A DNA stretch of 63,182 bases, filler included, from Rozella allomycis CSF55 (lineage: Eukaryota), in the NCBI GenBank assembly GCA_000442015.1. It is 15 parts of 15 records of this genome, joined end to end, with 100 filler letters (N's around TTAATTAATTAA, not from the genome) between each part and the next. Parts side by side here need not be neighbours in the genome. Positions count along the whole stretch, not along the records: positions 33,459 to 38,949 come from KE560746.1; 14 more parts are not named here. One strand, given 5' to 3'. The position numbers and the translations under genes were made by a program. Each line of letters opens with the position of its first letter. Position 1 is the stretch's first letter. This document shows positions 1,146-53,931 of this stretch, piece after piece. The notes below the pieces were generated by a model. The model had not been told where the DNA came from. It saw only the letters and a program-made list of their open reading frames with translations, and made no database searches.

Positions 1146-4100
1146 ATGCAAACAAATTTTCTCGACCATAGACATTTCGATCAGGCTGTTTCTTATTTTG
1201 TGTCTTTGAATGATAATAGGCGGCTACTGAATAATACGATTTTGGCGTTTTGTGCCAAGAGAGAAACGCATTGTTCGACTCTTTACCATTCGGTATTGCC
1301 TCTGTCTTGTTACTCGTCGACTGTCAAAAAAGAGAATATAGATTTTATTTTGAAGCATGTGAGAGCGACATTGAGAAAGGAAGAGGACACAAAGATTACA
1401 TTAAAGGGACATGTTATTGCGCGAAGGGATGTAAAGGTGTGTTTATTGCTTGCCAGTTTGATAATTATATTGAAATCGGTGGATGCGGAAGAGGCGTGTA
1501 AGATAGTTAACAAGAATGCTGCAGTGATTACCAAGGGGCTCTTTGACAGTTTTACATCGTCGCATGTGATTGCAAAGCCTTTGGTGGCATTTTATAAAGA
1601 TTTGGTTGCGATAACAAAAGTTGTTAGAAATGCAAAGAGTTTTAAAGTGTTTGAAGACTTGTCCAGCCGCTTTTTGGAACATCCGTTTAACAGTNNNNNN
1701 NNNNNNNNNNNNNNNNNNNNNNNNNNNNNNNNNNNNNNTTAATTAATTAANNNNNNNNNNNNNNNNNNNNNNNNNNNNNNNNNNNNNNNNNNNNCTGCCA
1801 CCTGAAATGGAATCCCGGTTCGATAACATAATGCAGCAAACGACAAAGTAATGTTATCACGTTGACCCACAGTTAGGTTGTCCACAAACTGTGACATCAG
1901 TACTTGGCTACTTGAACGTTGTGTTGAGAGTTCGGTATTATCAGTAAAAGAAGTGTCGCTGGTTGAATCAGCCATAGATTTACAAATTGTACGATATGCA
2001 CTTTGTCGCTTAAAAAAATCTCTCTCGATTTCAGGAATGTCCTTGCAACTGGCGCGTTTATGAGAAATAACTTTTTGTCGACCCCAGTATACAGTTTTGC
2101 CACAGGCTTTACATTTCCCGTTACCACCATTTTTTGAGCAAAGATATTCGCTAACGTCAAACGTCATAAAAATTGTGGCTTGGTAAAAGTCACTTACTGG
2201 TAAGTAAAATTTACTATACGGTAACTTACCGTATATAGCCGGTAAGTNAAAACACTTAGTCATGACGATAGTAAATATTGAAATTTAGTGATGATATAAA
2301 CTATGAAACATGGTTCTATTTATATCAATCAAAATGATTACTTCTAAGTAGGGACTGGGGCAAAGTTAGGGTAACTGCGCCACACAAGTAAAAGTTTTGT
2401 AGATCAGAAAATAAGATCTTGATGATAAAGAATTCGAAATTTTCATCAGATAAGAAAGTGGATATGAGTCAAGAACATCTAGTTTTATTGAACGGTTTTT
2501 TTGAGTTTCCTAACATGGTGCAAAGCAACTTACAAAGTAGTTCATCTGTTTTGAATGTTTTGAACTTGTTTTTAGCAATGCTCAAGCAAAAAGGCGAGGT
2601 ATATTAGTATGTCTCACAGTATCATAGGATCTTTTGGATAGTGGTGTCAAATTTAGTTCACTGCATCAAGTAGTGAAAGGTTTGAGTGAAGGATTTGATA
2701 AGTGCAACATGGACAAGGATTATTTTGTGAATTGGTTCGGAGATTTTGGATGTGCACTTGTGGGGCGCAAATGTCGTTTTAACAAATTTAAACTTACCTT
2801 GGTATTCTTGGACGGTTGGGTGTCTTCCGTGGCAAATGCAGATAAACGGTTTGTCAGCGTTAATGCCAGTCCTTCTGGATCGAATTGTTTTGAGTTTGGA
2901 GAGCACAGTAAAGATGACTGCATTAAAGTTATAACTAATTTGCATCAATTGATAAGTGCCTCATTGGTGACAAAGAAAGGAGGGAAACCTCAACTTGCTA
3001 GGACCCCTTCTTTTATTCGTTATTTAATCATGAATATATTTAATGGGCAAACTGATTTGAAAATTGAGGGAACAACTGACGTTGGAAATCATGATAAATG
3101 CACCCCTAAAACAACGGCATTTGGTTTAGTAGTCAATGTGATTCAAAATTTAGCGAAAATGACTGAAATTGAGCTCTATTTATTGATGGTTCATTTTTCA
3201 TTCTATTCGTTCAATCTTTACGTGAAAATCCAGTCTTCTGTATGGCCAAAAGAAGCAATAAACAATCTTAGTATCATTCTCAAACGTGCAGCGAGTTATA
3301 TGTCAAAAATTTATAAAATATATGATTGTTCCAAACTTTTTAATGAGTTTAATAGTTGTTGCAAGGAGTTAAAGGGGATCACTGAAGGCCTTAATACCAA
3401 AATACAAGAGCAACTAAAAGTAGAGTTAAGTAAAAGGTAAACTAATATTATAAATTATATATTAGTTACGAGGTCCGTGATTTAAATTTTTGTGACGTTC
3501 CATACCTTGAAAGCGATGGACAAGTGAAGAATATAAATGAAGTGGAGAAAATTGTTGCTCGTAATATCGGCTCATTTAATAATATCATAATTGACGATCA
3601 AAAAAATCAATTTTCTATTTTGAATAGTTTTATTGAAGGGAAAGGTGTAGATTTGAATGACTCCGAGTTTGGCGAATTATTTATTGCGAAAACAAACAGA
3701 ATGATGTATAAGAAAATGTTAATTCTTGAAAAAGAAGACATTCATAACTTAGATTCAAATGAACATCAGTTGATGAGGAATATTGTAATAACGTATACTT
3801 CTATTGTGAAAAAAATGCTGGAAAAGTACAAGCATGATAAAATGAAGTCTGTTGTTTTAAGCAATGAGGTTTTAGTTACGTGGATTGCCTGTTGTTTATC
3901 ATATGCATATTCAAAAGAGTGTGTCCCAGAATTGAATGCATTTTCTTTGCCTCTTTCGGCATGTGATCTTTCGTATTTATCACTTGACGATAAGTTATCA
4001 AGAGATGCAGTTATTTCATTATTTAATTACATTGAGAGGATCGAGGAGACTAGGGAGTTAGACGTATTCAATATGAATAATTTACGAGGCACATTTGAGT

Positions 4101-7100
4101 TTGCCCTTAAATACGGGAAAAATAATATGGCAATAAAAAACTACGTCAAAGAAACAAGGAATTTTTTGAGATCAGTTGAACAAAACGATTGGGATGAAAT
4201 AGAAAGAAAGAAGCGACGTGCAAGTGAACTTAGAAGGACTATAAGTTCACTCGAAAGTGATTATCAATATCTTGTAAATGAATATGAAAAGTTAAAGTTG
4301 ATATATAATGACAACTATTATGGCGATAACAGCGGCGATATCTATACGAAATTAAGGGAGGCAACAAGTCAAAAGGATCGTTGTTACAGCAGAATAAGAT
4401 CAAGCAGAACGATTCTCACCGAAGAACTTAAAGCTCCAAAATTTATTGTTAGTCCCATTCCGAGAGAGGATGATGATGCATTAATAATCACTTTCTTTCA
4501 TTTCATGAAGAATCCAATTCTTATTTTTTCTGAACTTTGCTTGGAAGCCCAATATTCTCTTTGTCCAAAGGAATTAAATGCGTGGAACTCCTTCAAAGAA
4601 AAGCATAAGATTACTGGTACAAGTTGGATGGACCACATCGTTAGTTATAGTTCAAGAAATCTTAATCACGGACAAAATTTTCATTTTTCAATTGTAAAAG
4701 GAAGTATTGACGTTCCCAAAGATTTTGGACCTTCAAATATTGACAGTATTGACAAGAGTACCGAAAGAATTTGGTATCCCATGTTTCAGCCTTCATTGAT
4801 AAACTGTACTAAAGGATGTAACATTTCCTTTGTTTCTAACGAAATTTTGAAGTGTTTGTTTATCGAACCCCTTGGCCAGAGTTATAATAAGAATTTGTAT
4901 TGGATAAATCAATTTCCTTCTACTTTGGACAAGCCTTCGGATCGTGGAAATTTTGCCTATTCAAAACTACAGTTTATCCCTAAAGATTTCAGAAAGGATG
5001 AATTTCAAGCGATTGCATCCTTGAGATCATTTCCTTTTCAGCAAATTAGAAAATTGGCAGCCGGTTTAAAAGACGGAACTCTACAACTATCCAATCAATT
5101 AGTGAAAAAGACGGTGAGACAGGCTCTTTATCAAATCGGGGAAATTGAAGACTCATCATTTGTTTGGCATTTTGACTTGCATAGAGATTTCTCAGGCTCT
5201 AATGAAATTGATTCTCTTTTAGATAACTTAAGTTTAAGCGGAGAAGGCACACAAATGGCTCGCACGGGTATTGATGTGTTTAATGAAATTCTGAAATCTC
5301 TAGCAGAGGAGATTAAGTTTACACCAAGAAATTATGAAAATATTATGCTATTATCTGAGATAGGAAGATTTATTTTTAACTTGAGGGATATTGGTGAAGA
5401 TGTAAGAATGTCTTTTACAAACGTTGTGGAGCATTGGTTAAGACTAGTAAAAGATGAATTAGGAAACATTAAAAATACAGTAGAAGAAAATTTATATCTT
5501 AAGGCGAAAGAATGTCTTTTTAATGGATATGGAATAATATGCTTAGGAAGGGGTTCATTGACTGTAGAAAGTGGCAAATTGATTGTTAAATACCTACTTG
5601 GTTTTTATAATGGATTAGCGTATGAAGAATGGGCTAGAAACGACAAATGTTTGATGAATGCTTTGAAAAGTGTACGCGAGCTGGTCAATGATTGCATGGC
5701 CTATCAACTAGACAATATTTTAGATTTGCTCATTTACTCCAATCATGGCGGTGACATATTGAATTATGCTGTGAAGTCAATTTTTGATTGTGTACCTGAG
5801 GGTTTGAAGTGGACATATTTCAAAGATTCTGTAGTGTTTTCTTCTAACGTAGATGGAACAATATACTCTGTAAATACCTTTAAAGGAATATTTCTTGTAA
5901 ATGGAATTCCACCAAGTAGACTATCAAAAGAAATCAAGAGTCATCCATTATATAAAAGAACGTTTAAAGATAGAGATTTTGAAGTTGTCCCTGATTCAGA
6001 GCCTGGGGTTTGTAAGACAACAACTCCAGTTCAAGGATTTTATTACAAATTTAGCATTTCGAATGATGGTTTATTAAAAGTACAGGAAATAAATGAAAAG
6101 GACGGAACAGTTTTGGATCTAATTGATTACAATAGCGGAGATTTTGTTATTAGTGATGAACTTCCAGAGAGATTGACAACAGAATATAGTCATTGGTATG
6201 ATATCGAGAAAGAGATTATGGTTATAAGGGAAGTTGAATTTCATAAAAAGTTAATTTTTTACTTGATAACGTTTGATGATGATGTGATGTATTGCTATTA
6301 TGTTAATGAACATTTAAGATCCAGATCATTAAACAATCTGGTCGGTATTTCTAAAGATTACTTGAATAGATATGTTCATGTTGAAGATAAAGGAATGATA
6401 AAATTGCTTTCGAGATTTGAATATTCTTCATTTATTGAAACTATGAGAAATCCTTCTAACGTTCTAATGTATTACTTTCCCAGATTTCATTTAACATTTT
6501 ACCACACGGACAATAAGGTACACAGTGAAGCGTTCCCAGATTATGTTTTACATTCGCATCAGGTTTTACAAGGAACTTTGGAGTATTTTGATTCATATTT
6601 AGTATTAAGAAATGATAGAGACGAGTACAAAATAATCGTGCCAAAAGGAGTTGTAATTTTAGATAATAATAGGGTGAGGATCAGTTTAAGCGAGGATTGT
6701 AACGCACAGTTATCTTTTTACAGTTATAATATTAATAAAAGGACTGGGGAGCTATATGCCAATTCTATTTCATCTAGACTACAATTAGCAGTTATCTACG
6801 CGGCATCTTCTACATTCGTTATTAGCCCATCGAATAGAATGACTGGCACTGAAATGGCCATTGAATATTTAAAGCAAAGTTGGATCAATAGACCTTTAGA
6901 TATAAGTGAAAGCAAAGTAATTGAAAATTTGTTTAAATTTTCGCATGACGAACCTTTGCTAACAGAGTTGTGCGTTAAACTGCTAGAAGAATCACAATTA
7001 ACCAACATAATACATGAAAAAGCGCAATATGAAAGCGATAATAATAAAGATTTGCCGAATAAAGACGAGAATTTTAGTAGGGTTCATGTGGCATTGACTG

Positions 7101-10100
7101 AAGGGACATTGAGAGCCAAAACGAATATTAATCATCATATTAGAAGATCAGATAGCTTGAATAATAAATTTTATGGTAAAAGTGTAAAAGTTGGCGAATA
7201 TTTCATCGAAGAGAACTTTGTGACTGAGATCGAAGAGAAATTAGAATCATTTGTTGAAAAGCGTGTAAAAGATGAAATTAAACCATTTCCTTTTAATAGT
7301 GAAAATAAAAATGCAATAATGATTGACATTTATAAAGATTTGGAAAAAAGTTGGCTGGAAAATGAAAAGCGAGAACGTCTTAGTTCCATTCAAAGAGGTG
7401 AATTACTTGAATATCTAGAAAGTGTTTATGCCGCAGTTCAGAGTAGAAAAGAAGAAATTGAACGATACATTTATGACAGCATTGAAAAAGTTCCAAGTGA
7501 AGAAAGTGCCATGATGAATTGCTTCAAAACTATTAACCTTGCTGCGTCGGCCAAAATAACTGATATTTATAGGCTTGTTATTGACAAATCTCATCTCAAA
7601 TTAATGAATCCTTACCTTTGTAATGAAAGTGTTGACAGAATTCAGAAATGTTCCATTCAATTTTTAAAACTATGTGTGCTTTGCGATAAAATAGAGAGGA
7701 TTCAGAACGGTTTATCTGATAATTTATCAAATTCAATTTTAGCTAAAGATTTATTGTGTAAAAGGATTTGGAATGCGGAGTGTAACCCTAGGTGGCTGGT
7801 TTTTGAGGCCGAAAATGAAATGCAAATACGACCTATTCAATATCTTTTTGCACAATTTTTAATAGAAAATCCATTTTCCATTTGTCAGTTAAACATGGGT
7901 TGTGGAAAGACCAGGGTTGTTTTGCCAATGTTGATTATGCATTATGTTGAAAATAATAAAGTCCCGTGTGTATATGTTATGAATTCACTGTTAAGAGAAA
8001 ACATTGAATATCTGCATTTAACTCTGACGGCAAGCAGCCAGAATATTCAAGTCCTTGAGCATCCTTTTAGCCGCCAAGTTGAAATGACTGAAGATGATAT
8101 TTCTATATTTATGGATTATTTGTCTACCCCAAATGCTTGTTTAATATCTTGTCCTGAATACAGAATGTCGTTAATGTTAAAACCACATGAATTGAAGTTA
8201 AAAGGACAATGTCAGATGATGACGAAATTACAAGAATATATAAGAATGAATAAATTTGTAGAAATCTTCGATGAAAGCGATGCGCTTTTGTCCCATATTT
8301 ACCAATTAATTTATACGGTTGGCACCCAAACTGAATTGACAAAGTTTTTTGAAAGATCAGTAATAATTCAAGCGACCCTTCAGATATTAAACTCTAGTCA
8401 ACGTATTCATGATTATTTATCAGAGAATAAATTATTAAATTTTGAAAAGACAAAATTCGATGGTGAGTTATACAAGATAAGATTCCCTGTTGAACTGATG
8501 GCAGAAGGATTGACCGAAAGAGAAACTTGGATCAAAATATGTGAAATGATATTTTATGAATTAGTAGGAGGGGTTTTTGAAAATCTTGAGTGGATTAGCG
8601 TCGTGTTCAAACAGAGCAACAAAAACTTTAAACGAATGTTCAAGGAAGCTGTTTTCAATTTAAATTTTGATCCTTCGAAATTTCTAAGAAAAATTAATGA
8701 TGAATTTAAGGAATCCCATGTGTTAATGTTGCGCGGGTTATTCGCGCATGAAATTTTGTTATTTATTCTTAAAAGGAGATATCAAGTAGAATATGGAATA
8801 GATGTTAAACGAAGCAAAAGAATGGCTGTTCCGTATAAGGCTGCTGACATTCCCACCGAAAAATCAGAATTCAGTCATCCTGATGTTTGTCTAGGTTTAA
8901 CAATTTTGTCGTATTACCATAATGGATTAAATAAAGAACAATTGAGACAAGCGTTTAGATTACTTTTATCATTTGGATCAGTCAGACAAGAGAAACTCTA
9001 TAATGCATGGTATGATTCAATAAAAGCTAATCTTGATCAAAATGAGATAGAAATGATAGATAAAGTGAATAAAATTGACCCAACATCAAGAAGATGTTTT
9101 ACATAAGAGGTTTGGGAAATGTATTAAAGTAATTAACTTTTGGCTGAACTATATAATTTTCCCAATAGATACTATTCAATATCCTCAAAGAATAGCTGCT
9201 TCAGCATGGACTTTGACAAGTGGTGACCATTGCATTGGGTTCAGTGGTACTAATGATACTAGCAAGTTATTGCCCTCAAATGTGGTTCAACGTCAACCAA
9301 ATATCCAAGAATTGATATCAACCAATGGACTAATGCTGAATTGTATATTAAATCACTCAAAGTATTACTCTTTTAATATTGTTAATTTGACTTGGAAGGA
9401 GATAGTAAATTTTTGCCTAGAAAAACAGTCAAATGCATTAATTGATACAGGATCATTATTAGCAGGAAAGTCAAACAAAGAACTAGCGGAATACATTCTT
9501 TTACAAAATTCATTTATTAACTCTGACTTTAAAGGGATATGTTATTTTGACGTTAATTTTGGCACCAATGGTCAGTGGATGGTTATTGAGAAAGGCACAA
9601 ATAAAATAAATACTTTGGTTGACTCTCATATACATGAAAAGGATACATTTGTTATTTTTGATGACGCAAGATCTAGAGGTGCTGACATGAAGTTAAAAGA
9701 CGATGCCACTGCAGTCATTACATTAGGCCCGAAAATTACTAAAGATAAATTTATGCAAGGGGCGGGAAGAATGAGAAAACTGTTAGATAATCAAAGACTG
9801 ATTATTATTTCTTCATTTGAGGTTAATGTATCAATCAAAAAGGCGATAAGTAGTCTGAATCATGTGCCTACAATAAATGATGTCATACAGTGGATTCTGC
9901 TTAATACTGAAAAGACTGTCATGGAAGGATTACAAATGTGGACAAGTCAAGGTTTACAGTATGCAAAACAAATGAAAAATCCAGATTCAATAGTTTGTAA
10001 TGAAAGGATCAACTTAACTGACCTTTATGGATTGAAGCATTTTGACCGCTCTTTAATGGATGAATACTTGCCTATTGCTGACAATTTGCCAAACACCAAA

Positions 10101-24855: not shown

Positions 24856-26424
24856 TTATTGTGGAATCGAAGCATATTTGGTGATCGGGCAAATTGTATT
24901 ATACCACCCGGTTTTCACTTTTTAGGTGACGCAGGATACGCGTTGCAACCTGAATTGCTAGTTCCATATCCTGAAAGTGATTGCCAAGAAATATCTTTGT
25001 ACAATCATTACCATAGTTGCACAAGAATCGTGATTGATTGAATGTGCCTATGGAGACTTAAAAAATAGATGGCGCAAGTTAAAAATGCCATTGAATCAAA
25101 AAAGTTTTCGTGAGATGGCTAAAATTGTTGTGGCCTGTGTTACCCTGCACAATTTGATGATTGACTTTAAAGACAATACAGTTTTGGAAGAAGATGTTGA
25201 CAATGTGTTATACTCTGATAACACGCCAGCAGATATTGTTCATAAAGATATTCGACATAAAATTGCCGAGAGTAAACGTGATTCAATTAAAAAATAGTTT
25301 CAAGAACTAAAACTGAATAAATAGATTGTTCTATTTCCTATCTTCACGATCAAGCTTATTATTAGGGCGTACATGGCTTCATTTAAATTCTTTTGAGATT
25401 CCGAAATCAAGCTTATTAAATTATTTTGTGTTTCTAATATTTGCTTTGTCATGTCCGATTNTATTAAAAAATTGTTTCGAGAACTAAAACTGAATAAATA
25501 AATTACTTTATTTCCTATCTTCACGATCAAGCTTATTAATTAGGGCATACATGGCTTCATTTAAATTCTTTTGAGATTCCGAAATCAGGCTTATTAAATT
25601 ATTTTGTGTTTCTAATATTTGCTTTGTCATGTCCAATTGATTCTCGCTTAATTTTTCGATTTTACCTAAAATTGATTCACTTGGTTGATTTTGTATATTC
25701 ATGAAAGCAGATGTAAGTTTTTCAGATGATTGAACAAAGACATCAGTTAACTTGTCAATGGTACTCATTTTCTTTTTTGAAGATGATAATGGGATTGATG
25801 AAATAGTTCTGTGAGCGTTCGGAGTGTTACACCCTTCATGTATCTCGTTCAAAGGTCCAGACTCGTCACGTAACTCATCGGCCACTGTTGGACCATTACT
25901 CATGCTATCGGCGAGAATTGTTCCTCTTAACCCTATCCGTTCCTGAAAGACAGTGTTCATCATTTCCCAAAGTGATTCAGAAATATTGCGCGGTAAGTAT
26001 TTGTTTCCGGTTTCACATAAGTCCTTTTTGTGTGCCAAATAATTCTTTTTGAGCTTATGAAGTTTATCTTTCACCTGTTCTGGTGTCAATAATGAAGCAC
26101 ATTTAAGATTTAAAGCGCTTGTCAAAGTAATAAGGCTTTTGTTTCTATCGTGGTTGTTTCTAGCCTTTAATAATAAATTATTGATGTTTGACTCTTCATA
26201 TCGAATTCTTAATAGCTCAATTTCCATATCTTCAGACCACTTGGCCCTTGGAATTATGTTTACCTAATATTAAATAAAAAATTTTGGTTTTTTACCGGTT
26301 CCGTATCACTATTTTCTGCCTTTCTTTTTTTCATGTACTTCTACCGGGGTAACCGCTTTTCCATTGACGCTTTTGCTATTTGGAAAATTTGGAAGCGTCG
26401 ACGCCGGTTACTCCTACCAGGCCC
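24856..26424. mobile_element. PIF/Harbinger transposon copy 1: DDE_Tnp_4 nuclease (+, frameshifted) and Myb/SANT-like gene (-), with right terminus
   Basis: LGDAGYAL...YNHYHSCTRIVI/ECAYGDLKNRWRKL...ACVTLHNL; convergent KWSEDMEIELLRIRY...EQVKDKLHKLKKNY...TGN ORF; ends ...CCTACCAGGCCC then TTA (26425-26427). Confidence 0.9.
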
Positions 26425-26427
26425 TTA

Positions 26428-26815
26428 GCTTGTTGATCGGCTATTTCATTTAATTCTATACCTGAATGTCCTTTTACATGTTCAAAATTAATTGTGCCTG
26501 CGAATTGTGATCGGAGGTACCGGGCATGATCAATAATATCCAGGTTTGGCGTTTTGGTGGGTTTTAGCGTTTGGTGAGGGAACTTTAAAAAAATTGTGTT
26601 CATAATTGTAAGAGCATTCTGTGAGTCACTAAATACTTTGATGTTGGCATTCGCCGGGCATTGTGTCAATCCGCTGATAATGGCGAATAGTTCGGGCCTT
26701 GTAGAGGACGGATGTCCAAGTATTCTGCCGGAAATAGTCGTTCGTGTTTGACAAGTTTTATTAAAAATTATGCATGCATAGCCGAGTTTGTTATTCATGA
26801 GGGAGCCATCGCACC
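26428..26815 (-). mobile_element. RNase HI domain fragment, probably from a non-LTR retrotransposon
   Basis: DGSL...SSTRPELFAI...VFSDSQNAL...HVKGHSGIELNEIADQQAK with D-E-D-D catalytic residues; cut at the Harbinger TTA junction. Confidence 0.8.
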
Positions 26816-26816
26816 N

Positions 26817-27450
26817 AGGGATTGATGAAATAGTTCTTTGAGCGGTCGGAGTGTTAAACCCTTCATGTATCTCGTTCAAAGGTCCGGACTCGTCACGCAA
26901 CTCATCAGCTACTGTTGGAGCATTACTCATGCTATCGGCGAGAATTGTTCCTCCTAACCCTATCCGTTCCTGAAAGACAGTGTTCATCATTTCCCAAAGT
27001 GATTCAGAAATATTGCGCGGTAAGTATTTGTTTCCGGTTTCACATAAGTACTTTTTGTGTGCCAAATAATTCTTTTTGAGCTTCTGAAGTTTATCTTTCA
27101 CCTATTCTGGTGTCAATAATGAAGCACATTTAAGAGTTAAAGCGCTTGTCAAAGTAATTAGGCTTTTGTTTCTATCGTGGTTGTTTCTAGCTTTTAAAAT
27201 TAAATTAATGATGTCTGACTCTTCATATCGAATCCTTAATAGCTCGATTTCCATATCTTCAGACCACTTGGCCTTTGAATTAAGTTTTCCTAATATTAAA
27301 TAAAAAATTTTAGTTTTTTACGGGTTCCGTATCACTATTTTCTGCCTTTCGTTTTTTCATGTACTTCTACAGGGGTAACCACTTTTCCATTGACGCTTTT
27401 GCTATTTGGAAAATTTGGAAGCGTCGACGCCGGTTACTCCTACCAGGCCC
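26817..27450 (-). mobile_element. PIF/Harbinger transposon copy 2: Myb-like gene fragment and terminus
   Basis: Near-identical to 25791-26424, ends with the same TACCAGGCCC|TTA but has a different outer flank. Confidence 0.85.
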
Positions 27451-31069: not shown

Positions 31070-31750
31070 CCTTCGCTTTATTTTATCCTTTATTATTTTG
31101 CTAATAATTGTACAATATCATCACAAAAGTAAAAATAACAATTATCGAACATTTTAGTTTCAACTATGCCACGGTTTGTACCGAGTTGTTGCGTTCCGGA
31201 TATTATTATTGTTTAAACCAAACTCTCATAACTCATTCCATTATATTCCCTGTCAACAGTGATTATGACAATTTACACTAACGTCATTCAGAGAATTGAA
31301 ACACGGACACTTACAAATTACAATGAAGACATTAAACTGAAGAACTTATTAATTAATGTTAAGTTAAGCATTAGAATATAAGTATTCCTTTATAAAAAAA
31401 TAAAGTTATTTCCAATTNNNNNNNNNNNNNNNNNNNNNNNNNNNNNNNNNNNNNNNNNNNNNNNNNNNNNNNNNNNNNNNNNNNNNNNNNNNNNNNNNNN
31501 NNNNNNNNNNNNNNNNNNNNNNNNATTTATGCGGGAAATAAATGGTTGAAATTTAAAATAAGGGCTCAATAAGGCTTTGACGACCTTTTTGTGTTTTTAA
31601 AAAGATCGAAATGTAATTGTTAAATTGTATTATTCTTTCGGCTGTAATTCATCAACTCAATCTGAACAAAGAATTTCGAGGCTGAGTATTGCAATTAGCG
31701 AATTTGGCATGCGGCACGTGTACCTTTAATAATTTTCACAAAATTTTCAT

Positions 31751-33195
31751 ATGAGGTTCAAATTCTGTGCATTCATTTATTTTATCAGCGCATTTCTTTA
31801 TATTTCAGCCTATAAATTCAATAGACAAGAAAAAAGAATTGTTGCAAAAGCTACTGCGAAAGCGGCGATGAAAGCAATTGCAGTCACTCCAGTAGCAACA
31901 GTAGCGTCAGCTGTAGCGACTATGTATCATCCTCTAGCTGCATTGGCTGAAGTTACTAAAAGAAATCAGACTCAAGCCAAATACCACATGACCCAAGCTG
32001 GACGCGCCTTCTTAGGAACACTAGCAAGTCCATTTCTGGTATTTTTGACACCTATTATTAAATATCACGAAACAACCAATCTAATTATCAATACTAATTA
32101 TAGTTGTTCTGCTATCATAAACAGGAACAACCCATCTGAAATATTCAGCACTGGTTACGAAATATTTACTGCCTTGGACGCTCAATTTCTAAAGCAACTG
32201 CTATTAAAAGTTAAATTTGAAGGAGAAGCTAGCGCATTTCAAAAGGGCCCAGCCAACGAATTCTTTTTTCTTTTTGCGGCGACATTGCAAAATGAGCCTT
32301 TCGATTTGTTCGATTATGATAACAATAGATCTATTTTCAAAATCAAACCGGGGATAAAATCAGATGAAAGGATTAAAAGATTTAAAACTCTTGGAAAAAT
32401 TCTTGGATTCTATGCCTACAAAAAAATACCCATTGGAATGGCATTCCCGAATTCATTTTACAAAATTTTGCTTAAAAAACAATTGTCAAGAAAGGACTAC
32501 TCTAAAGATGATCAAATCGCATACAATAATATGATGAAACTGAAAAGTTGTTCAAATGAAGAGCTGGATGATATGTTTATATATTACCCGCCTCCAGATG
32601 ATGAAAAAATGGTCAATCAAATCAATTTAGAAGACTATATCGAGTACCTATAATTTTTACCCTGTATTTAGAAAGCAATCACTTTTTCAGATGTACGGAT
32701 ATGCCAAAGATGAAATTGACGCGGTTGCTGCTGAATTTCAAAGATTCGTAAAGCCCTCTATGTTTAAATCGCCTATAAAATTAAAAGTGAGTATAATTTA
32801 TCATTTTTACAGCTAGAAATTGTTAATCGGAGAGACGGATTTCCATTTAATCAAGGAAAGTCTAATCGCCAATGTCAAACTTTCATACTATTCCCGTTCC
32901 GACTTGGTCATATCGCTACTATTTAAATATATACGACAATTAAGCGATGAATCTTTGAAGAAATTTTGGCGATTCATCTCCGGAAGCGAGTATTTCGCTG
33001 CGTCCACAAAATTGACATGGTCGGTGAGCAAGGGTACATCAGAGATGGCGCTCCCATCAGTTTTTACATGGTAGCAAGCATAAATTATTAAAATGTAGTT
33101 TCAGGCACGTTATCATGCCTAGGTATACAAATTATGAATCTCTGGCCACAAAATTTGATCAAGCAATTGAAGCAACAGACTTTGCACTAGCTTAA
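31751..33195 (+). CDS. HECT-domain E3 ubiquitin ligase with a predicted N-terminal signal peptide
   Basis: MRFKFCAFIYFISAFLYISA; VKFEGE...GPANEFF; FKTLGKILG...FPNSFYKILL; KKFWRFISGS; removing intron 33071-33098 gives LPSVFTCFRHVIMPRY...TDFALA*. Confidence 0.85.
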
Positions 33196-33358: not shown

Positions 33359-33458
33359 NNNNNNNNNNNNNNNNNNNNNNNNNNNNNNNNNNNNNNNNNN
33401 NNTTAATTAATTAANNNNNNNNNNNNNNNNNNNNNNNNNNNNNNNNNNNNNNNNNNNN

Positions 33459-36400
33459 TGAAAAGTCGAATATAATTGAAAAGTCAAATGTTTTAGTAAA
33501 TGAAAAGTCAAATATTCTGGAAAAGTCGAATGTTCTGGTGATTGGAAAAAGCGGAAAATCATTATACGTCCAGTCAACCTTCAAAAACGTGGCAACAGTG
33601 TACTGCAGCCGCCAAACAAGCTGGCTGGACCTTGTGCGAGAGATCAAGAGCCACGGCATGCTAGTCTCTTGTACGCGCGGCAAGCAATTCAAGCCCAAGA
33701 AGAACCCATTGACGTTGTATGTGAAGAATGTGCACGAGGTATTGATGGATGCGTACGAGTCTAGTACTGTGTATAGTTTTGTGTATGGATTGATTAACAA
33801 TAATGGGTTTTATGATGAGAATGGCGAGTGGATTGCGTGTGAGGTGGGTGTTGTGTTGGGGAGTGAGAGGGCGATTCAGTGTGAGAGGCTGGGTGGGTGG
33901 TTGGATGTTGTTGTGGTTGGGGAGATGAGGGATGAGGAGGTTGGTGGTTTTATTAGGGATTGGTTGATGAGAGGCGTTAAAGACGTTGATAATATTGGAG
34001 ATGAGGGTGTGGAGAAGATTGTTGGGAAGATTATGCAGGTTTATTTGGGGTGCAAGTGTGGAATGAAAACATTGAATAAAATATTAAAGAGGCTTGTAGG
34101 TAGAATAAAGAGGGAAATGAGTTTTGATGAGATTATTGTTTGTGTGTATAATCTGTGTGAAAGGTTTATTGGGGATTCAGACGTTGCAAAGTCTAGAGAG
34201 ATCAAGAGAATATTTAGCAAGAGGGAAGAGATGAAGAGTGTTAGAGAATTGAATTTTGAAAAGTTGATGATAGACAATATGATAATAGTTGGCGAGAACA
34301 ACAGTGGCCGAAGAAGCCTCCTGAACGACCTTCAAATAGAAATATTCGAGTTGAATGAAACATTAAACTATCAATTCAAGCAATTCTCTAATCAAATAAA
34401 GAATATTCTTAATTGTAGGGGAGAAAAGATGGTTGTTGTGTATGATTACCAGATTAACGATTGGATATTGAATTGTGTGCATTTGTTTGTGAGTAGTTTG
34501 GATGTAAAGTATTTGATGAATGACGATGATTTGAAGCAGGTTGATGGTGAGAGGCTGGTGAAGAATGAGCTGTATTTTGTGTTTGTGGTGAAAAGTGTTG
34601 GAGTGTTTGAAGGGTATCCAGGGATTTTGAATGAAATGAGAGTTGTTGAATTTGAAGGAGTAAAGGATGTTAAAGATATCAGTGTTGTTAGTGAAGGGAG
34701 TGAAGGAAGAGAAGGGAGTGAAGAAAGTGATAGAATAAGTGAGAGTGTTATTCAGAGTAAATATTATTAGTGCTTCTATGTTTAGGGTTTAACAATTGCA
34801 AGTCATTTAAGAATTCATTTGATTTGTGGGTTGGATATAAACTATTCTTGAAAATAAAGAATAGAGAAATGGATAAAATAAAAAAAGAATTAGAAAGATA
34901 TGAAAATGGATTAAAAACAATAAAGAATGCGAATAAAGTAGTTAATGATCTAAGCAGAGAAGCAGAAGAACAAGAAAAGGAACTAATAATCAAACAAACA
35001 GAAGCAGATGAATCCTTAAAACTAATTACCTTTAAAATGAACGATTCATTAAACAAGCAAAAGATAATCCAAGAGTTAGTTTCAACATTGAACAAGGAAG
35101 AAGAGGATTTGAAGAAGAGGAGAATTGAAATTGAGAATGAGTTGATGCAAGTTGAGCCAGCTATTAGTAAAGCGAAAGAAGCGATTGGAAAAATTAAGAA
35201 TGAGAATTTGAGTGAAATTAGATCACTGAGATCGCCGCCTAGTTTGATTAGGGATTTGTTGGAAGGGGTTTTGATGTTGATGGGTATTTATGATACTTCG
35301 TGGACTTCAATGAAATCATTTCTAGGTAAAATGAATTGAGGGGATTAAATTAGGTAATTCAAGTGTTCAGGTTTTAATTAGGTAATTGATTTAGTTAAAC
35401 TCTCAAAGGTAAAAAGACGGTCAAGGATGAAATAATAAATTTCGATGCTAGGAACATCAACAAAGAAACAAGAAAATCTATAGAAAAATTAATTCAAGAA
35501 AAGAGTGAAGCATTCGACCCCATAAACATTAAACGATCATTCGTAGCTGCCGAGCCCCTAGTATTATGGCTCAAAGCGCAATTGCAATACTCGATCGTCA
35601 TTGAAAAAATAAAACCATTAGAAGGTGATTTAAACATGCTGAACAATTCACTGAATAAATCGAGAGGCGAGATTGAAGAAAAGGAGAGTGAATTGAAAAG
35701 ACTGGAGGCCGAGTTGGAAGAGTTGAGGGTTGATTTTAGTAGAAAGACTAGTCAGACGGAGAGTTTGAAGATAAAGTTGGGGGTTGGGAGGGAGAGGATT
35801 GAAAAGGCTAGCATGCTGTTGAGCAAGTTGAGGGATGAGCAGGAGAGGTGGAGTGTTGTTGTTGGGGAGTTGGAGGGGAGAGTTGGGGTGTTGGATGAGT
35901 TTGTATTTAAGCGAGTTGAATTAATCATCAAAGGGGAAGTGGGAGAAGAAGTAGAAGGAGTGGAAGGGGAAGAAAGTGTTGACATTGTAGAAGGAGTTGA
36001 AGTAGAAGGTGAAGTTGACAATCACAATATTGATACCCTTTCAGCAAGTAATAATCCAGTGGATGTGGCATTGATGAGATTGAATGAAACTATTTTGGTA
36101 AGTTTGATTAGAGATCCATTAGATATTTGCATTGATTATTTAAAAGATTATCAAATTATAAATTACAATGATTCTTCACTGTTGAGACAATTAGAATTAG
36201 CCATGAAATTGGGAAATAGAATAGCTATTAGGAATATGAATGAAATACCAAGTTATTTGGGTTATTTGATTTCTAATATTTCTAAAACAGATGAGATTAA
36301 ATTGTTGGATAAAGAAATCAAAATTTCTTCAGGTAGAATAGATCTATTGTGGCATAGTTAATAGGTACCTCAGATCTATAATCTAAACAAGGGTTTAAAT

Positions 36401-38949
36401 TGGTTTTAATTACAAAAAATAAAGAAATAAAATCATGTGAATCTATTTTGGATTGTTTAACGATAATTGATTTTAATTTAACGAGAAGAGTGTTGAGTAA
36501 TAAATTTCTAGATTTGATTGTGAATAAAATGAATCCAGAAAATCAATTGAAAAAAGAAGAAATAAATTTGAAGCAAAAAGAATTGAATTTCAAGTTGATA
36601 GAATTGGAAGATGAATTATTGAAGCAATTGTCAGAAACAAATGATCTTCTTTCAAATGAGCCACTTTTACTTTCACTTGAAGAGATTAAAATTCAGTCTT
36701 TGAATATCAAGAAAATATTGAATGAGAATTTGATTTTGCTAAAGAATCTTCAAAACCAGTTTATCCAATTTAAAGAAATTACAGACTTTGCAAGTAGATT
36801 TTATTTTGCTTGTGAGAAACTGAAATCATTCAATTCAAACTATTTTGTTTCTGTGAAGCAATTTGAGTTTGTATTGTTGGAAATTATTTCTGTTGTTGAT
36901 TCTAACTTTTTCAAAAGAGAATTTGTTAAATCTGTTTTTAGTATTCTGGCTAGGTTTGTTGTTGAAAGAGATCAATTAGCTGTGTATTTGTTTATTGTTA
37001 AAGAAATGTATGAGCAGGTTGTTAATCAAGATGAATGGGATTATCTCAAAGGTAAGCGAGTTGGAAATGTTTTGTGAAAGGGAATGTAAAGAAAAGTAAA
37101 TCTTATGGCACTGCTGATGGTAATTCAAATGGTAAAGTGAGTAATTCAACTATTACTTTATCAAATTCATTCTTTGAAAAGTATAAAGTAGAATTGAATT
37201 CATTGGCTAATTGTAAATTCTATTCAAAATTAAACTTTAATGATCCACTAAAATGGATTGAATGGTTAAAATCTTCAAATCTAATCTCAAACTTTCCATT
37301 TCCAAATTTAACGTAAATCACATTATAAAACCTTAAGAGATATTTCCAGAAACTACTTTTAATTAAAATATTCAAACCAGAATTATTCACAAATTATTTA
37401 AAGTCATTTATTTTGAATCTTGTTGGATTAAATAGTCTTCCTTGCTTTGATCTCAACTTGAATTCTATTTATAAAAATGGCTTGCCCATTCTTTGTTTTA
37501 CTTTTCCTGGTTCTGATCCATTTTCTCACATTAATTCTATTCCTAATCCAAATCCACCAATTATAGTAACGTTTCATTTTTGTTTTAATCTAGGTACCTC
37601 ATCTATTTTTTTACTAATCTAGGTACCTCATTTAGTAAATTTCTGATCTAGATCTCGCCAAAAATTTCTAAAAATAATCTATTCAAGATTCTTACAAAAG
37701 CAGTGAATGACAATAGTATTGTTTTGATTGAAAATATTCAATTTGTTGAATTCCAAGATGAAATAGTTTCATTCCATCAAAACAATCCATTATTAACTTT
37801 ATTCATGANATCTGGTTTCTGATTATTGCATTAAAGTTTCCTTTGAATCTACTTTTAACATTAAATTAAATTGTAAAAGATTACTCAATGGTAATTCACT
37901 TTAAACTATTCCAATAGATTACATTGATGCTAAAGAGTTGAATTTGAATAGATGTTTCAAAGTTGCATGGCTTCATTCTATTTTAATAGCTAGAAAATCA
38001 ATTATTCCAATTGGCTTCCTCAAAGATTATGAATTCAGCGATACAGACTTTAAAATAGCCATCAAAATAGCGTCAACTACAAATGAAACCAGTTTATTCA
38101 AAAGTTTACTAATATCGTCTGCTTATGGTCCTAAAATTGATAATAAAATAGATCTTGAAAAATTAGTTATTCTAGTCAACAGTATCTTCAATGCTAAAGA
38201 TTTCAAACTGGATGGGCTAAAAGCTTCGTCTGATGTGAATGTTTCAAGTATTACAGGTATTCTGCAGTGGTTGGATAATGCTGCAGTTGATGACTTTGAA
38301 GCAATGTGTTTGCCAGCGAATACACTTGTCATGAAATCTCTGTTGGATTTAGACTACACTTTGAAACTTTTGCGATCAGTAAATGAATTTAAATGTTTTG
38401 TTTCTGATTAGTTTTAAATCTGTGGTTGGTAGTAGCGATGGGTTGAAGAGTCAATGGCTGGAAATCAAGAGTCAGTTGGCCAAGTTTAGAAATAATGAGA
38501 CGAGAAGAAGCAGTGAAGGAGATGAAGCCTTTGTGGTAGAGTTTTGTGAATTGGAGTGCCAGTTTGGATGGGATTTGGTCGAGTTTGTTGACAAGCAGAT
38601 GGAGAATTTGCATTCTTTGCATGATGAAACTCCTGACAGGTAACACACAGTAACATAAATTAATTCTTAGGTAAATATAGCCCAATGAATTAAGGTAGCT
38701 GGCTATTATTCTGGGAAGGTCCATCGTCAATCTCTGACTACTTTAACAGCATCTACCAGAACATTTCGCATCAATACACTCTCCCAACCACCTCAAAGGA
38801 TCCAGTCACCTTGGAATTCATGTTTAATCCAGANAATTCATGTTCAATCCAGATTCATTCATCGCTGCAGCCTCACTCCTCACCTCCATCGACTCGCCAG
38901 TCGCATGTCTCTCATTCCAACCAACGCCAAACGCTATTCACATATCATC
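33459..38949 (+). CDS. DYNC2H1: Cytoplasmic dynein-2 (retrograde IFT) heavy chain, AAA3 to C-terminal region, highly divergent
   Basis: [10 protein letters not shown]; stalk/[99 protein letters not shown]. Confidence 0.92.
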
Positions 38950-39049: not shown

Positions 39050-40376
39050 TTTTGTTTTCGTGTCTTCCAACTCACCAAATTTCCATCAAAAAATATTAAA
39101 TATCCTGTTGTACTTTTTCCTGTATCTTTATCCGTTGCCCAATCTGCATTTCTGAACCCTTCTACCTGTATCCTTCCTTTTTTCACACTTGATACGCCAT
39201 CGTCACACTTGTATGTGAGAAAGAAATCTTTCGTTTCCTTTAAGTATCTCATAATTCGTTTGACTAATTTCCAATGCTGTTCCCCTGGATTTTCCACGAA
39301 TCTACTTGCCATTGTCACGGCGCTACTAATGTCGGGTCGTGGCATTGCTTGAATCCATTGAAGGTTCCCTATCGCCTCCCGACGCCATGTTCACCGCGCT
39401 ACTAATGTCGGGTCGCGTCATTGCTTGAATCCATTGAAGGTTCCCTATCGCCTCCCGATATGGTATCTCAATTTCTCAGCTTCACTTTGTGGGCTTTGTG
39501 ATGTGCTGTAGTCGGCCCCTCTTTCCATTGGTGTGGATATTCCTGCGCATTCTTCCAATCCAAATTTTTTNCGGTATTTCCTTCATTCTCAATTTCGCAG
39601 CTTCACTTTGTGGGCTCTGTGATGTGCTGTAGTCGGCCCCACTTTCCATTGGTGTGGATATTCCTGCNTTCAATTTCTCTGCTTCACTTGGTGGGCTTTG
39701 TGATGTACTGTTCTTCTAATCCAAACTTTTTCAAAGTATCTTCATAAAATGTTTCTTGTGACAGTCTTATCTCTTTCTTTTCCGCATCTTGTTCAATGTT
39801 ACTTCCTAAGCACCAATTCAATTTCCCCAAGTCCTTTATCTTGTATTGAGCGTTCAGGTATGTTTTCGTCTCACTCAGCATTTCTTCGCAGTTCGTTGCT
39901 ANCAATGATTTCTTCAGTTTGCACACCTTCGTTTCAGATCCTTTTTCGGCGAAGCCATTTGGTTGTTCCATGTAAATCGTCTCACTAATCTTACCGTTGA
40001 GATACGCAGNTCGTAGAGCGCCAATATAATTGTCTTATTCTTTTGTTTCTTGGTGTATACGCAGTAGTCGGACTGGCATCTCTTGAATCCCGCCCTTTTC
40101 TAATCCTTGTCATTGCGCATGTTCCATTGTCGTCTAGCTTGTTTCAATCCATACAATAATTTTTTCAGTGTGCATACTTTCGTTTCAGATCCTTTTTCGG
40201 CGAAGCCCTCTGGTTGTTCCATGTAATCGTCTCACTAATCTTACCGCTGAGATACGCAGTTTCGACTTTTAATTGGTGTAGTTTATAGTGTCCTGACGCG
40301 GACAGTGCAATAATTGCTTTCACTGAAGTATGTTTCGCCACTGGTGCATATGTTTCGAAGTAATCTCTCCCTTTCA
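39050..40376 (-). mobile_element. Ty1/copia LTR retrotransposon RT and RNase H fragments, collapsed and degenerate
   Basis: TYAPVAKHTS; AYLNGKISETIYMEQPNGF...VCKLKKSL; IKDLGKLNWCLG; RPDISSAV; ADWATDKDTGKSTTGY...VSWKTRKQ. Confidence 0.92.
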
Positions 40377-50239: not shown

Positions 50240-50413
50240 TAAAATTTTCCGAGAGGTGAATTGGCGACAACGTTCCCATAGCGAGTCTTTGAAAAAATCT
50301 ACCAATCGGATTTAGGATTATTATCTGTCGTCTTTTAATTCGTTTTTATGAATAAATTGATAGATCTATCAAAAATTCGACTTTGCCACATATTAGTGTA
50401 AACAATCGCCAAC

Positions 50414-53400
50414 ATGGCCTACACGTCGAAAAACAAGCGAGGATTATTGGAGGACATGGTACTTTTGTCACGGATAAATGAATCTGAAATCAATGATAAC
50501 TTGAAGAAAAGATATGACGATGATCTAATATACGTAACCCAGCCGTTGTTTAATTACAGACATATATTGGCCCAGTTTTAATTGCCGTTAATCCGTTTAA
50601 AAAATTGAGTTACTTTACAGATAAAGAGATTGAATTGTATCAAGGTTCTGCTATGCATGAGAATCCACCACACATATATGCGATTGCTGACGCAATGTTT
50701 CGAAACATGCTGATTGATGAAGAAAATCAGTGTGTCATAATATCGGGTGAAAGTGGGGCTGGAAAAACAGAGAGTGCGAAATTGGTGATGAATTACATAT
50801 CCGCCGTTTCTGGGAAAGGAGGAGAAGCAGTCGAAAGGATAAAATATATTATTCTTGAAAGCAATCCGTTGCTTGAATCGTTTGGAAATGCAAAAACACT
50901 GAGAAACAACAATTCTAGTAGATTTGTAATTTGAGATTATTCGTTAAATAGGGGAAATATTTTGAGATTCTTTTCAATCGTGGAGGGATGCCTGTTGGAG
51001 GAAACATTTCAAATTTTTTGTTGGAAAAGGTGAATTTCGAATTATTTTTTAATCTAGTCACGTGTTGTTGGATTAAAGCAAGGGGAAAGAAATTTTCATA
51101 TTTTCTATCAAATGACAAAAGGCGCTAATAAATTTGAAAAGGAGAACTATGGAATGACAAATCCTGATTATTTTAATTATCTGCGTCAGAGTGGAACATA
51201 TGATGCGGATGGGATTGACGACGTTGCGGATTATCAGGAAGTTAAAGTATGGACAATATATTTATGCAATGTATTTAGAAGGCGATGGATATTTGTGGTT
51301 TTTCTAAAGAAGAGATTAGTTGTATTTTTGAGCTGGTTGCTGGTATATTGCATTTAGGAAACATTGATTTTATTGAACAAGGAAATGGAGCAGTGGTTAG
51401 AGATCCTGACAGTATGATTGTTGTGTATGATTTATAGCACTTAGCTTCCCATCATATTTGCTTGGGATTAAAGAAAATGAATTGTCAAAAAAGTTGCTTA
51501 GTAGAATAATGAACTCTGGCAGCAAAAGAGGAAGTACGTATGATGTTCCAATGAATGTTCAACAAGTAAAAACGTTGATTATTCTTGAAAGGCTACAAGT
51601 GCAAGAGATGCATTAGCAAAGGCTTTGTATTCTCGGCTATTTGATTGGCTTGTGAAGGCAGTTAATAGAGCAATGACAAGGAAAGAAAAATCACAAACTG
51701 TAAATCTTGGAGTTTTGGACATTTACGGATTTGAAATTTTTGAGCAGAATGGTTTTGAACAATTTTGTATAAATTATGTGAATGAGAAGCTGCAGCAAAT
51801 ATTTATTGAATTGACATTAAAATCTGAGCAAGAAGAATATGTAAAGGAAGGCATTAAATGGACTCCAATTGAATTTTTCAATAACAAAATTGTTGTTGAT
51901 TTGATAGAGGGAAAAGTAAGAATATTTTTTGTTGATTTTAGCGCCCTGTTGGAATCATGGGAGTGTTGGATGACATTTGCGCGACAACTCATGCGATTAC
52001 TGAGGGATCAGATGTGAAATTTGTACAAAAAATGACAGATGTTGTTGGCAGTAATCCACACTTTCAAGGCATGTCCACTCATTTTATGATTAAACACTAT
52101 GCTGGGAACGTTACTTATGAATCTGAAGGGTTTTCTGAATCAAACAGAGATAGTTTGTTTAAAGATTTGGTATTGCTAGTTCAAACAACATCAAAGTAAA
52201 CTACAATTATTTATCATTCAACAGAAATTTTATTAGAGATTTGTTTCCAGAGGACATTAATGAAGATTCCAAGAAACGACCAACAACATTCTCGTTTAAA
52301 ATAAGAAACCAAGCCAATGAGTTGGTAAAGGAACTAACAAAATGCAAACCTCATTATATTCGCTGCATAAAACCAAACGAAACGAAAAGACCCAGAGATT
52401 GGGATTCAAAAAGGTAATAAACAAATTAAAGATGGACAAGGGTTGATCATCAAGTTCGATATCTAAATTTAAAAGAAAATATAAGGATTAGAAGAGCTGG
52501 GTATGCGTATAGAGAAACATTTGAGAAATTTCTGAAAAGGTAAATAAACTTTGTATTCAAAAACAATAGATATGCTATTTTAACTAGAGAAACATTTCCG
52601 TGTTGGAATGGAAGTGTAAATGATGGCATAAATCATATTATGAATTCAGTAAAAATGGAAAATGATCAATTTCAAATTGGCTTGACTAAAATATTTATAA
52701 AGAATCCCGAATGTGTAACAATTTAATTTTGAATTTATGAATAGTTGTTTCTGTTGGAAGAAACTAGAGAGCGCAAGTACAACGCCTATGCGAAAATAAT
52801 TCAACGAGCATTCAGAAAATACAAAATGAGAAAATATTTTCTTGAATTAAAAAAGAAATGTAAACAATTAATCTCTCTTTTTAAATAGCATATGATATTG
52901 TTTATGGCAAGAAAGAAAGACGACGATTTACTTTAAACAGAGAGTTTGATGGCGATTATCTTCACATTCCAGAAAACCCGATAATAAAACAATTGATTGG
53001 GAAACAAAATGTTTTGTTTGCTGACAAAATAATAAAATACGATAGAAGGTTTCGACCACAAGAAAGGGAATTGGTGGTGACGAATGAAGAGATCTTCATC
53101 ATTGGCATAGAAAAAGTAAAAAGTGGACCTTCAAAAGGAACTTTTACTAAAATTGTAAAGAGAGAAATCCCAATCAAAACTGTTACGCAGATAATCACAA
53201 GGTAATCATCAAATATTACTTTAATCAGTTCAAAATGCGACGATTTCATTGTTTTACAAGTTTTTAATGACTATGATACTCTGTTTGAAAATGTTTGTAA
53301 AGTTGAACTCTTATCAGTTCTCAGCCAGCTTTACTTCAATTTAACCAGCAAGCCACTACCCTTGTCATTCAGAGATTCGTAAAATCATTTTCTTGCTTAA

Positions 53401-53931
53401 AAAGGTTTTCCTTTACTGTCAAAAACGTTACATTCGAAAGGAATGGTGAAAGATTCGTGTCAATTGTTAATGGCCCATCCTTGAAGTATCAAGTAAATGG
53501 GAAAACAATGACTGTTTCTGTTCCTATTGGTTTGCCAAACACTTCCCAACCTTCAATCAATAATAAAAGAAGAAGCAATCTAGTTACAAAAGGCACCATC
53601 AATGGACCAAAGAAGCAAGTTGGGCGGACTGCAAATTTGGGTTCACAGCTGGCAAACTTGAAAGTTGAAAATAAATCTTCATTAGATAAAGCAAGAGTTG
53701 CACCACCAAGACCAGTTCCTGCTAAACCAAAGCTGCCTCAATGTAAAGCTTTGTATCAGTACGAAGCAAGAGAAGCAGACGAATTATCAATTAACCCTGG
53801 AGATATTATCACAATTATTAATTCTGATGATCAAGGTAATTACACATTCACTTTATTGTACAGGTTGGTGGGTTGGAACTTTTGCAGGCAAAAAGGGAAT
53901 GTTTCCAGCAAACTATGTAGAGAAAATTTGA
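50414..53931 (+). CDS. MYO1: Long-tailed class I myosin (motor-IQ-TH1-SH3)
   Basis: [34 protein letters not shown] site [11 protein letters not shown]1; C-terminal SH3 (ALYQYEA...GWW...FPANYVEKI*); many short introns. Confidence 0.95.

Follow-up and report, generated by a model that had tools for sequence, protein, structure and literature searches.

How does a gene come to hold intervening sequences of 59 to 86 nucleotides (nt) in a genome whose introns measure about 28 nt, and how might such sequences be removed? The question is raised by a fragment of the cytoplasmic dynein-2 heavy chain gene of Rozella allomycis CSF55, which lies at positions 33459-38949 (record KE560746.1) of a 63,182-nt stretch of DNA joined from 15 parts of assembly GCA_000442015.1, referred to here as the window. 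The element at the center of the question, the 59-nt sequence at 38640-38698, is probably a phase-2 spliceosomal intervening sequence made up of two back-to-back mini-introns with no exon between them, likely removed singly. The gene fragment, the two units, and the exons on either side are as follows (the slash marks a splice boundary here and below).

33459-38949, + strand: dynein-2 heavy chain gene fragment, the C-terminal third, from AAA3/4 to the C-terminal domain
38449-38639, + strand: upstream exon, ending in ..SLHDETPD plus the AG of a split Ser codon; open reading frame (ORF) 38383-38640
38640-38670, + strand: unit 1 of the compound intron, 31 nt, GTAACACACAGTAACATAAATTAATTCTTAG, with a GTAACA 5′ site and a CTTAG 3′ site
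38671-38698, + strand: unit 2 of the compound intron, 28 nt, GTAAATATAGCCCAATGAATTAAGGTAG, with a GTAAAT 5′ site and a GGTAG 3′ site
38699-38949, + strand: downstream exon, beginning C/TGG.. (SWLLFWEGP..) and reaching the contig end

The two units abut with zero nt between them, giving a total of 59 nt, so that inside the intron the 3′ splice site of unit 1 runs straight into the 5′ splice site of unit 2 (CTTAG/GTAAAT, 38666-38676). The flanking sequence reads ..CCTGACAG upstream and CTGGCTATTATTCTGGGAAGGTCC downstream. Unit 1 carries a TTAAT branch-like motif 7 nt ahead of its CTTAG, and unit 2 carries the branch-like motif ATTAAG, with an AAG at 38692-38694 that is out of frame. Judged by these signals, the 59-nt target is two complete mini-introns, each with a GTAA 5′ site, a TTAAT or TTAAG branch-like motif, and a YAG 3′ site.

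The outer boundaries were examined against the protein that the gene is expected to encode. The intron lies in phase 2, with the Ser codon divided AG/C. Without splicing at 38640, the frame meets an immediate stop (ETPDR-stop), and the same end results when only unit 1 or only unit 2 is removed; removal of all 59 nt gives ETPDSW...WEGP, which aligns free of gaps with dynein-2 homologs. The motif P..W...W[EDSNA]GP, mostly as WEGP, stands at the corresponding place in the 40 dynein-2 homologs listed, and the homolog of the chytrid Spizellomyces (P0003) reads ..GETPQSWLLLWEGPE there. When every GT..AG pair near the target that leaves an open frame was enumerated (n = 20) and scored against 10 homologs, 38640-38698 came out at the top of these stop-free solutions, with a score of 598 versus 451 for the runner-up. 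An alternative donor at 38650 was rejected because an in-frame TAA would stay in the exon. With its GT and AG ends and the restoration of a conserved frame on removal, 38640-38698 has these two properties of a U2-type GT-AG intron. Two starts, 38433 and 38449, are candidates for the upstream exon; the Rozella protein model P0001 terminates in ..HDETPD, and a tblastn match of homolog P0002 covers 38455-38619. A first-pass annotation of this DNA had divided the element into 31 + 28 nt and had proposed that taking out both units restores the dynein-2 motif PxxWxxxWEGP. Its coordinates and unit boundaries are exact in the sequence, and the restored motif both matches the homologs and belongs to the best of the 20 solutions.

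Because a normal intron here measures 26-32 nt, the target is two normal introns long. This length range comes from two genes. In the myosin-I gene (50413-53930, + strand), a purpose-written protein-to-DNA spliced aligner gave 14 introns supported by homology. Three homologs, chytrid or aphelid, led to identical introns, and the first 9 also agree with the deposited Rozella model; the 14 measure 26, 26, 28, 32, 26, 26, 26, 29, 27, 30, 30, 29, 27, and 26 nt. A 15th, of 28 nt, was deduced from the frames of the SH3 region. For the dynein contig, eight proteins were aligned with the same spliced aligner, and sites were kept if found by at least six of the eight or otherwise supported. Distant homologs produced false long "introns" in this aligner across Rozella-specific insertions (33459-34750 and 38400-38800), and these rows were discarded. 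Four single introns of the dynein gene were retained.

34757-34785, + strand: single dynein intron, 29 nt, found by 6 of 8 proteins
37052-37080, + strand: single dynein intron, 29 nt, found by 3 of 8 proteins
37313-37339, + strand: single dynein intron, 27 nt, found by 7 of 8 proteins
37891-37917, + strand: single dynein intron, 27 nt, found by 7 of 8 proteins

The shortest of the 19 single introns of the window (15 in myosin-I and 4 in dynein) thus measures 26 nt and the longest 32 nt, their median is 27 nt, and the 5′ site of the window's introns is usually GTAA. The lengths of ab initio GTA..AG segments joining two open frames have their peak at 26-31 nt, a range that holds 35 candidates, of which about 30 fall in other genes of the window; beyond that length there is scattered noise. 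A 22-nt "intron" at 37815-37836 was rejected as an artefact because the scaffold misses 26 nt at N 37809, where contigs of two public DNA runs (X1 and X5) carry 26 extra letters. The junction at 38379-38448 contains a perfect 33-nt mini-intron-like segment, GTAAAT..CTGATTAG, which is not removable alone because a TAA comes next. The frame at this junction requires either a 70-nt intron (33 + 37 nt, the second part without a GT) or a 22-nt intron, and the 22-nt alternative (GTTTTA..GGTAG, 38411-38432) is preferred by the homolog alignment and keeps 16 more residues.

The only well-supported introns clearly longer than 32 nt are four in the dynein gene, of 83, 59, 86, and 59 nt, the last being the target. 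The other three are given here.

35326-35408, + strand: compound intron of three units, 83 nt = 28 + 28 + 27, each GTAA..AG, found by 8 of 8 proteins
36333-36391, + strand: compound intron of two units, 59 nt = 32 + 27, found by 7 of 8 proteins
37566-37651, + strand: compound intron of three units, 86 nt = 28 + 29 + 29, found whole by 3 of 8 proteins and in part by 4 of 8

All four tile exactly into GTA..AG units of 27-32 nt, 10 units with six internal AG/GT junctions over the four arrays. The ends of these units were compared with those of single introns by means of a position weight matrix (PWM), with the leave-one-out scores of the 19 single introns as reference and 262 exon GT..AG segments as controls. 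All 10 array units score inside the single-intron range (-4.8 to 6.0). Each target unit has a score of 0.0, which places it among the highest 5% of the 262 exon controls; the profile is weak, and these values say that the units are no worse than real introns. A branch-like [CT]T[AG]A[ACT] motif ahead of the AG is present in 9 of the 10 units, both target units included, compared with 11 of 19 single introns and 68 of 262 exon controls.

The probability of such a pattern arising by chance was computed analytically from a first-order Markov null trained on the arrays themselves, in which AGGT is inflated, so that the null is generous. The chance of an internal AG/GT(A) splitting a 59-mer into two intron-sized halves is 0.01-0.045, and the joint chance for the four arrays under this null is 5.6e-9 to 4.7e-13; AGGT is about 8 times rarer still under single-intron composition. 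Compound introns occupy four of the eight dynein intron sites and none of the 15 in myosin (Fisher p = 0.008). Set against the rest of the window, where the count is 0 of about 45, a denominator that includes unverified ab initio candidates, the dynein sites give p = 2.4e-4. A mechanical scan found 14 abutting GTA..AG pairs in the window, 7 of them in the dynein contig. The seven pairs outside it (+ strand: 240, 17347, 28870, 52507, and 59695; - strand: 26230 and 15879) were rejected as compound introns because none bridges open reading frames; at 52507, just the second half is a real myosin intron. The first-pass annotation fares well in these respects, too. The four compound introns that it had counted in the dynein gene are all found, with their coordinates now fixed, and the myosin gene, in which it had seen none obvious, has none at its 15 sites. 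Its argument against chance agrees with a joint probability below 1e-8, and the clustering check that it had proposed, run inside this window, gives the enrichment of dynein over myosin reported above.

Two of the arrays bear marks of duplication or of varying unit number. The array at 37566-37651 is a recognisable 29-nt tandem repeat (Tandem Repeats Finder [TRF]: period of 29, 2.0-2.3 copies, 81-86% matches), and its unit pairs score 15 and 12, compared with a 99th percentile of 9 and a top value of 13 in the 398 other intron pairs. At the 35326 array, 29 letters starting TTAG/GTAATTC are inserted after 35377 in a contig of one DNA run (X5, depth 6.3). These form a fourth unit, which by eye matches unit 2 in about 22 of 29 columns and is not shown by X1 and X2. 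Variation is particularly high in this array, which has substitutions at 35362-35363 and a 17-letter skip in X2 besides the 29-nt insertion in X5. The sequence AGGTACCTCA occurs three times in the window (36363, 37592, and 37621), each time at an internal unit junction, in two arrays 1.2 kb apart; it is expected 0.05 times, and none of 100 shuffles reaches three. This shared sequence hints at a copying of units between intron sites, beyond tandem copying. Both units of 36333-36391 have AGATCTAT in common, at the same offset.

The target units are no more alike than random intron pairs (global score of 5, equalled by 26% of the others); their local similarity ranks 171 of 406, and TRF reports nothing at the target. 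Since its own units are not alike, we infer an origin of the target by unit duplication from the neighboring arrays, by analogy. Two units is nevertheless the natural reading of the target, because single introns here measure 26-32 nt and, in other arrays, units are duplicated and vary in number.

In three public DNA runs (X1, X2, and X5), contigs extend over the region, including 38611-38794. Two differences are listed for the target: a 1-nt insertion after 38648, in part of the depth only, and a G>T change at 38694 in part of the X1/X2 depth, which turns TTAAG into TTAAT and loses the out-of-frame AAG. No internal AG/GT is touched among the differences listed, which says little because 143 more are not among them. 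The 5.5 kb of 33459-38949 as a whole have 40 listed differences and these 143 more relative to the DNA runs, often in part of the contig depth, a pattern that points to the presence of two diverged haplotypes or strains. In the C-terminal exon of the dynein gene, a 20-nt direct duplication lies around N 38834 (38815-38853; TRF, 2.0 copies, 94%), and from 38833 the X5 contig no longer matches; an error in joining the assembly is the probable cause. The metatranscriptome run X11 contributed two contigs with short partial matches followed by unlike sequence, which are evidence neither way.

The arrays could originate and be processed in a simple manner. A whole mini-intron would be copied beside itself or beside another intron, for example by slippage at flanking AGGTA repeats, to give an array. 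Any order of removal, whether unit 1 first, unit 2 first, or the outer sites in one step, would lead to the same mRNA: with unit 1 out, the exon end ..ACAG would meet GTAAAT, and with unit 2 out, CTTAG would meet CTGG. Because every splicing route would yield the same mRNA, whole-intron duplication would be near neutral, so that such arrays could arise and persist. The units would be excised one at a time, with AG/GT serving as a zero-length exon, a route that is favored because 26-32 nt is the size that the local spliceosome normally handles. Unit-wise removal appears somewhat more likely than removal in one step, since all single introns measure 26-32 nt and the diverged target units both retain complete signals. 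As its splice signals stand, the element is an array of complete mini-introns, and its removal would be a variant of recursive or complex splicing.

A more far-reaching version, which we put forward tentatively and with less than even confidence, holds that the spliceosome is limited to about 26-32 nt and that longer elements are minisatellite-like arrays, obligatorily removed in several steps across zero-length exons, with units copied between sites. Arrays would then gain and lose units between haplotypes, as minisatellites do, and introns would propagate within the gene, conceivably by reverse splicing beside an existing splice junction.

Other explanations of the target have to be weighed against two mini-introns removed singly. 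The element may have been born as two mini-introns and now be a relic, excised in one step from 38640 to 38698 with the branch of unit 2 while the internal AG/GT stays silent. The end mRNA would be the same either way, 59 nt is by general knowledge unproblematic for most known spliceosomes, and the candidate 70-nt intron at 38379-38448, if real, would need one-step removal. The 70-nt model is, however, disfavored by the homolog alignment, the absence of any intron above 32 nt among the 19 single ones speaks for machinery that prefers a certain length, and the target units have diverged beyond recognition yet both keep full sets of signals, so that we regard a relic as rather unlikely. It is very improbable that the target is an ordinary single 59-nt intron in which the internal AGGTA is a coincidence. 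The dissimilarity of the two units would fit such an intron, as would the chance of 1-4.5% for the target alone under a null trained on the arrays, but three further introns of the gene tile alike (joint chance below 1e-8), no single intron among 19 exceeds 32 nt, and each half has ends like those of an intron and a branch-like motif.

An assembly or amplification artefact, that is, a false duplication in a gappy scaffold, would be in keeping with the poor quality of this scaffold, which has 44N+12+44N gaps, 26 nt missing at N 37809, and the 20-nt duplication at N 38834. It can be practically dismissed here: X1, X2, and X5 contigs cover 38611-38794 with minor partial-depth differences among those listed, the target units are not copies of each other, and the frame needs both removed. 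The two units might also serve regulated unproductive splicing, in which removal of one unit alone would bring an early stop and so tune dynein-2 levels. Retention of either unit does lead to ETPDR-stop at once, and 31 and 28 nt are both of the form 3n+1; the same holds, however, for any retained intron here, and nothing indicates regulation, which makes this a quite improbable role.

Several points weigh against the preferred reading of two mini-introns removed singly. Unit-wise removal is not required, because most spliceosomes can excise a 59-nt intron in one step. The PWM scores of the target units reach only the top 5% of controls, and for the target by itself the generous null puts the chance of an internal AG/GTA at 1-4.5%. 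The target units have no detectable similarity to each other, and the tandem repeat seen at 37566 is absent there. The extra unit of the 35326 array depends on a single contig of depth 6. The length distribution derives from one 63-kb window, and within it the 70-nt intron possible at 38379-38448 cannot be tiled and would be a counter-example if real, the 22-nt alternative being favored. Nor does the reading account for the clustering of arrays in one gene.

The assignment of the host gene to the cytoplasmic dynein-2 heavy chains, already made in the first-pass annotation, is borne out by its best homologs and by the WEGP motif. The contig exons match the Pfam families MT (dynein stalk, 49.8 bits), AAA_9 (57.2 bits), and AAA_lid_11 (47.6 bits), and one exon is 99% identical to ROZALSC1DRAFT_29608, the hypothetical protein, partial, of Rozella allomycis CSF55 referred to above as P0001. 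A search with P0001 put cytoplasmic dynein-2 heavy chains of chytrids and animals first among the long proteins, at about 33% identity (E values of 5e-105 to 1e-60); dynein-1 proteins are weaker (E values of about 1e-46 and worse). On sequence comparison, the gene is thus a cytoplasmic dynein-2 heavy chain, its dynein-2 matches standing above those to dynein-1 and the C-terminal WEGP motif being present. The code of the window is the standard one, long ORFs being open under table 1. Metagenome contigs provided 17 related loci, 29-56% identical (12 of the 17 at 29-33%), and close relatives of the dynein-2 locus were not found among them.

The deposited model P0001 removes just 35 nt (36357-36391) at the 36333-36391 array and thereby retains eight residues (RIDLLWHR) that homologs lack. 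It also omits much of the AAA6 region (37188-37962 compared) and terminates at the target intron. Gene predictors appear to mishandle arrays of mini-introns.

The coding strand of the gene is strongly G-rich at 34001-36000 (GC skew of 0.54 in a 2-kb window), where Rozella-specific insertions rich in Gly, Glu, and Val lie in the dynein AAA4 and stalk region. A HECT-domain gene (31733-33100, + strand) ends just ahead of the gap at 33359-33458, on the far side of which the dynein fragment begins. Of the dynein-2 gene, the N-terminal two thirds lie outside the window, so that either the scaffold would be misjoined or contigs would be missing. Elsewhere in the window, an intron-poor ORF of 1886 residues with DUF3638 and DUF3645 domains (3446-9103, + strand) is preceded by a 29-nt mini-intron candidate at 3437-3465. 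Mobile-element remnants are found at 24856-25294 (+ strand), 39687-40034 (- strand), and 25511-27101 (- strand). They include split pieces of a DDE_Tnp_4 (Harbinger-type) transposase, a copia-type RVT_2 reverse transcriptase fragment, and two paralogous ORFs, of which the one that was scanned is weakly Myb/SANT-like, under the Pfam cut-off.

In the literature searched, no report of arrays of abutting mini-introns was found for Rozella or for other genomes with tiny introns. Ultra-short introns are known from the genomes of Paramecium, the chlorarachniophyte nucleomorphs, and Stentor, which Rozella resembles in having a very narrow range of intron lengths (26-32 nt) near the lower limit. In the model of Rogers, introns are reportedly gained by tandem genomic duplication across AGGT. 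The Rozella arrays are similar in that duplication of AG/GT gives new splice-site pairs that would be functional at once. They differ in that the Rogers model copies exon sequence and creates a new intron position, whereas in Rozella a whole intron would be copied, the position stays fixed, and the number of units changes.

Fungal introns have medians from 29 bp upward according to one paper (PMC8042348), and a figure of 2.5 introns per kb is given for Rozella in another (PMC8476143). The long introns of Drosophila are reported to undergo zero-nucleotide-exon recursive splicing at ratchet points (bioRxiv 10.1101/006163). Like these ratchet points, the Rozella arrays have ..YAG/GTAA.. juxtaposed within an intervening sequence, which makes consecutive removal possible with no exon left. 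In the Drosophila account, the introns measure tens of kilobases and the steps serve the removal of long introns, whereas the Rozella elements are 59-86 nt as a whole and their steps would be 27-32 nt. Moreover, either unit of a Rozella array could go first, and the arrays are described here at the level of DNA, unlike recursive splicing in Drosophila.

Fungi offer two further comparisons. In the reticulon-like gene of Lipomyces starkeyi, a complex intervening sequence can reportedly be excised in one reaction or in two consecutive ones (PMC7138796). The Rozella arrays share with fungal stwintrons and complex sequences the U2 type, the presence of more than one intron unit, a removal that could take one reaction or two, and a proposed origin by duplication of splice elements. 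In a stwintron, the internal intron sits within a splice signal of the external one, which makes the two nested and their order obligatory, whereas the Rozella units lie side by side and their order would be free. No donor, branch, or acceptor split in the manner of a stwintron was found in the arrays, every unit of which has an intact GTA.. start and ..AG end. The introner-like elements of fungi multiply as introns, according to two papers (PMC3609843 and PMC4457414), and the Rozella arrays likewise appear to consist of multiplying intron sequence, AGGTACCTCA linking two arrays and being the only such link in the window. Introner-like elements are longer than regular introns, structured, and dispersed in hundreds of copies, whereas the Rozella units measure 27-32 nt, are few and mostly tandem, and come from a single gene.

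How introns multiply and what determines their length are long-standing open questions. The gene described here shows four arrays of abutting mini-introns among introns of about 28 nt, with signs of recent duplication and differences in unit number between samples. If the arrays are excised unit by unit, they would represent the smallest-scale recursive splicing known and would be direct evidence that the spliceosome of an ultra-short-intron genome measures length; if their units are excised together, they would mean that the lengthening of introns can proceed via the duplication of whole introns. The sequence of these arrays points to a capacity of tiny introns for tandem multiplication and to their possible removal unit by unit.

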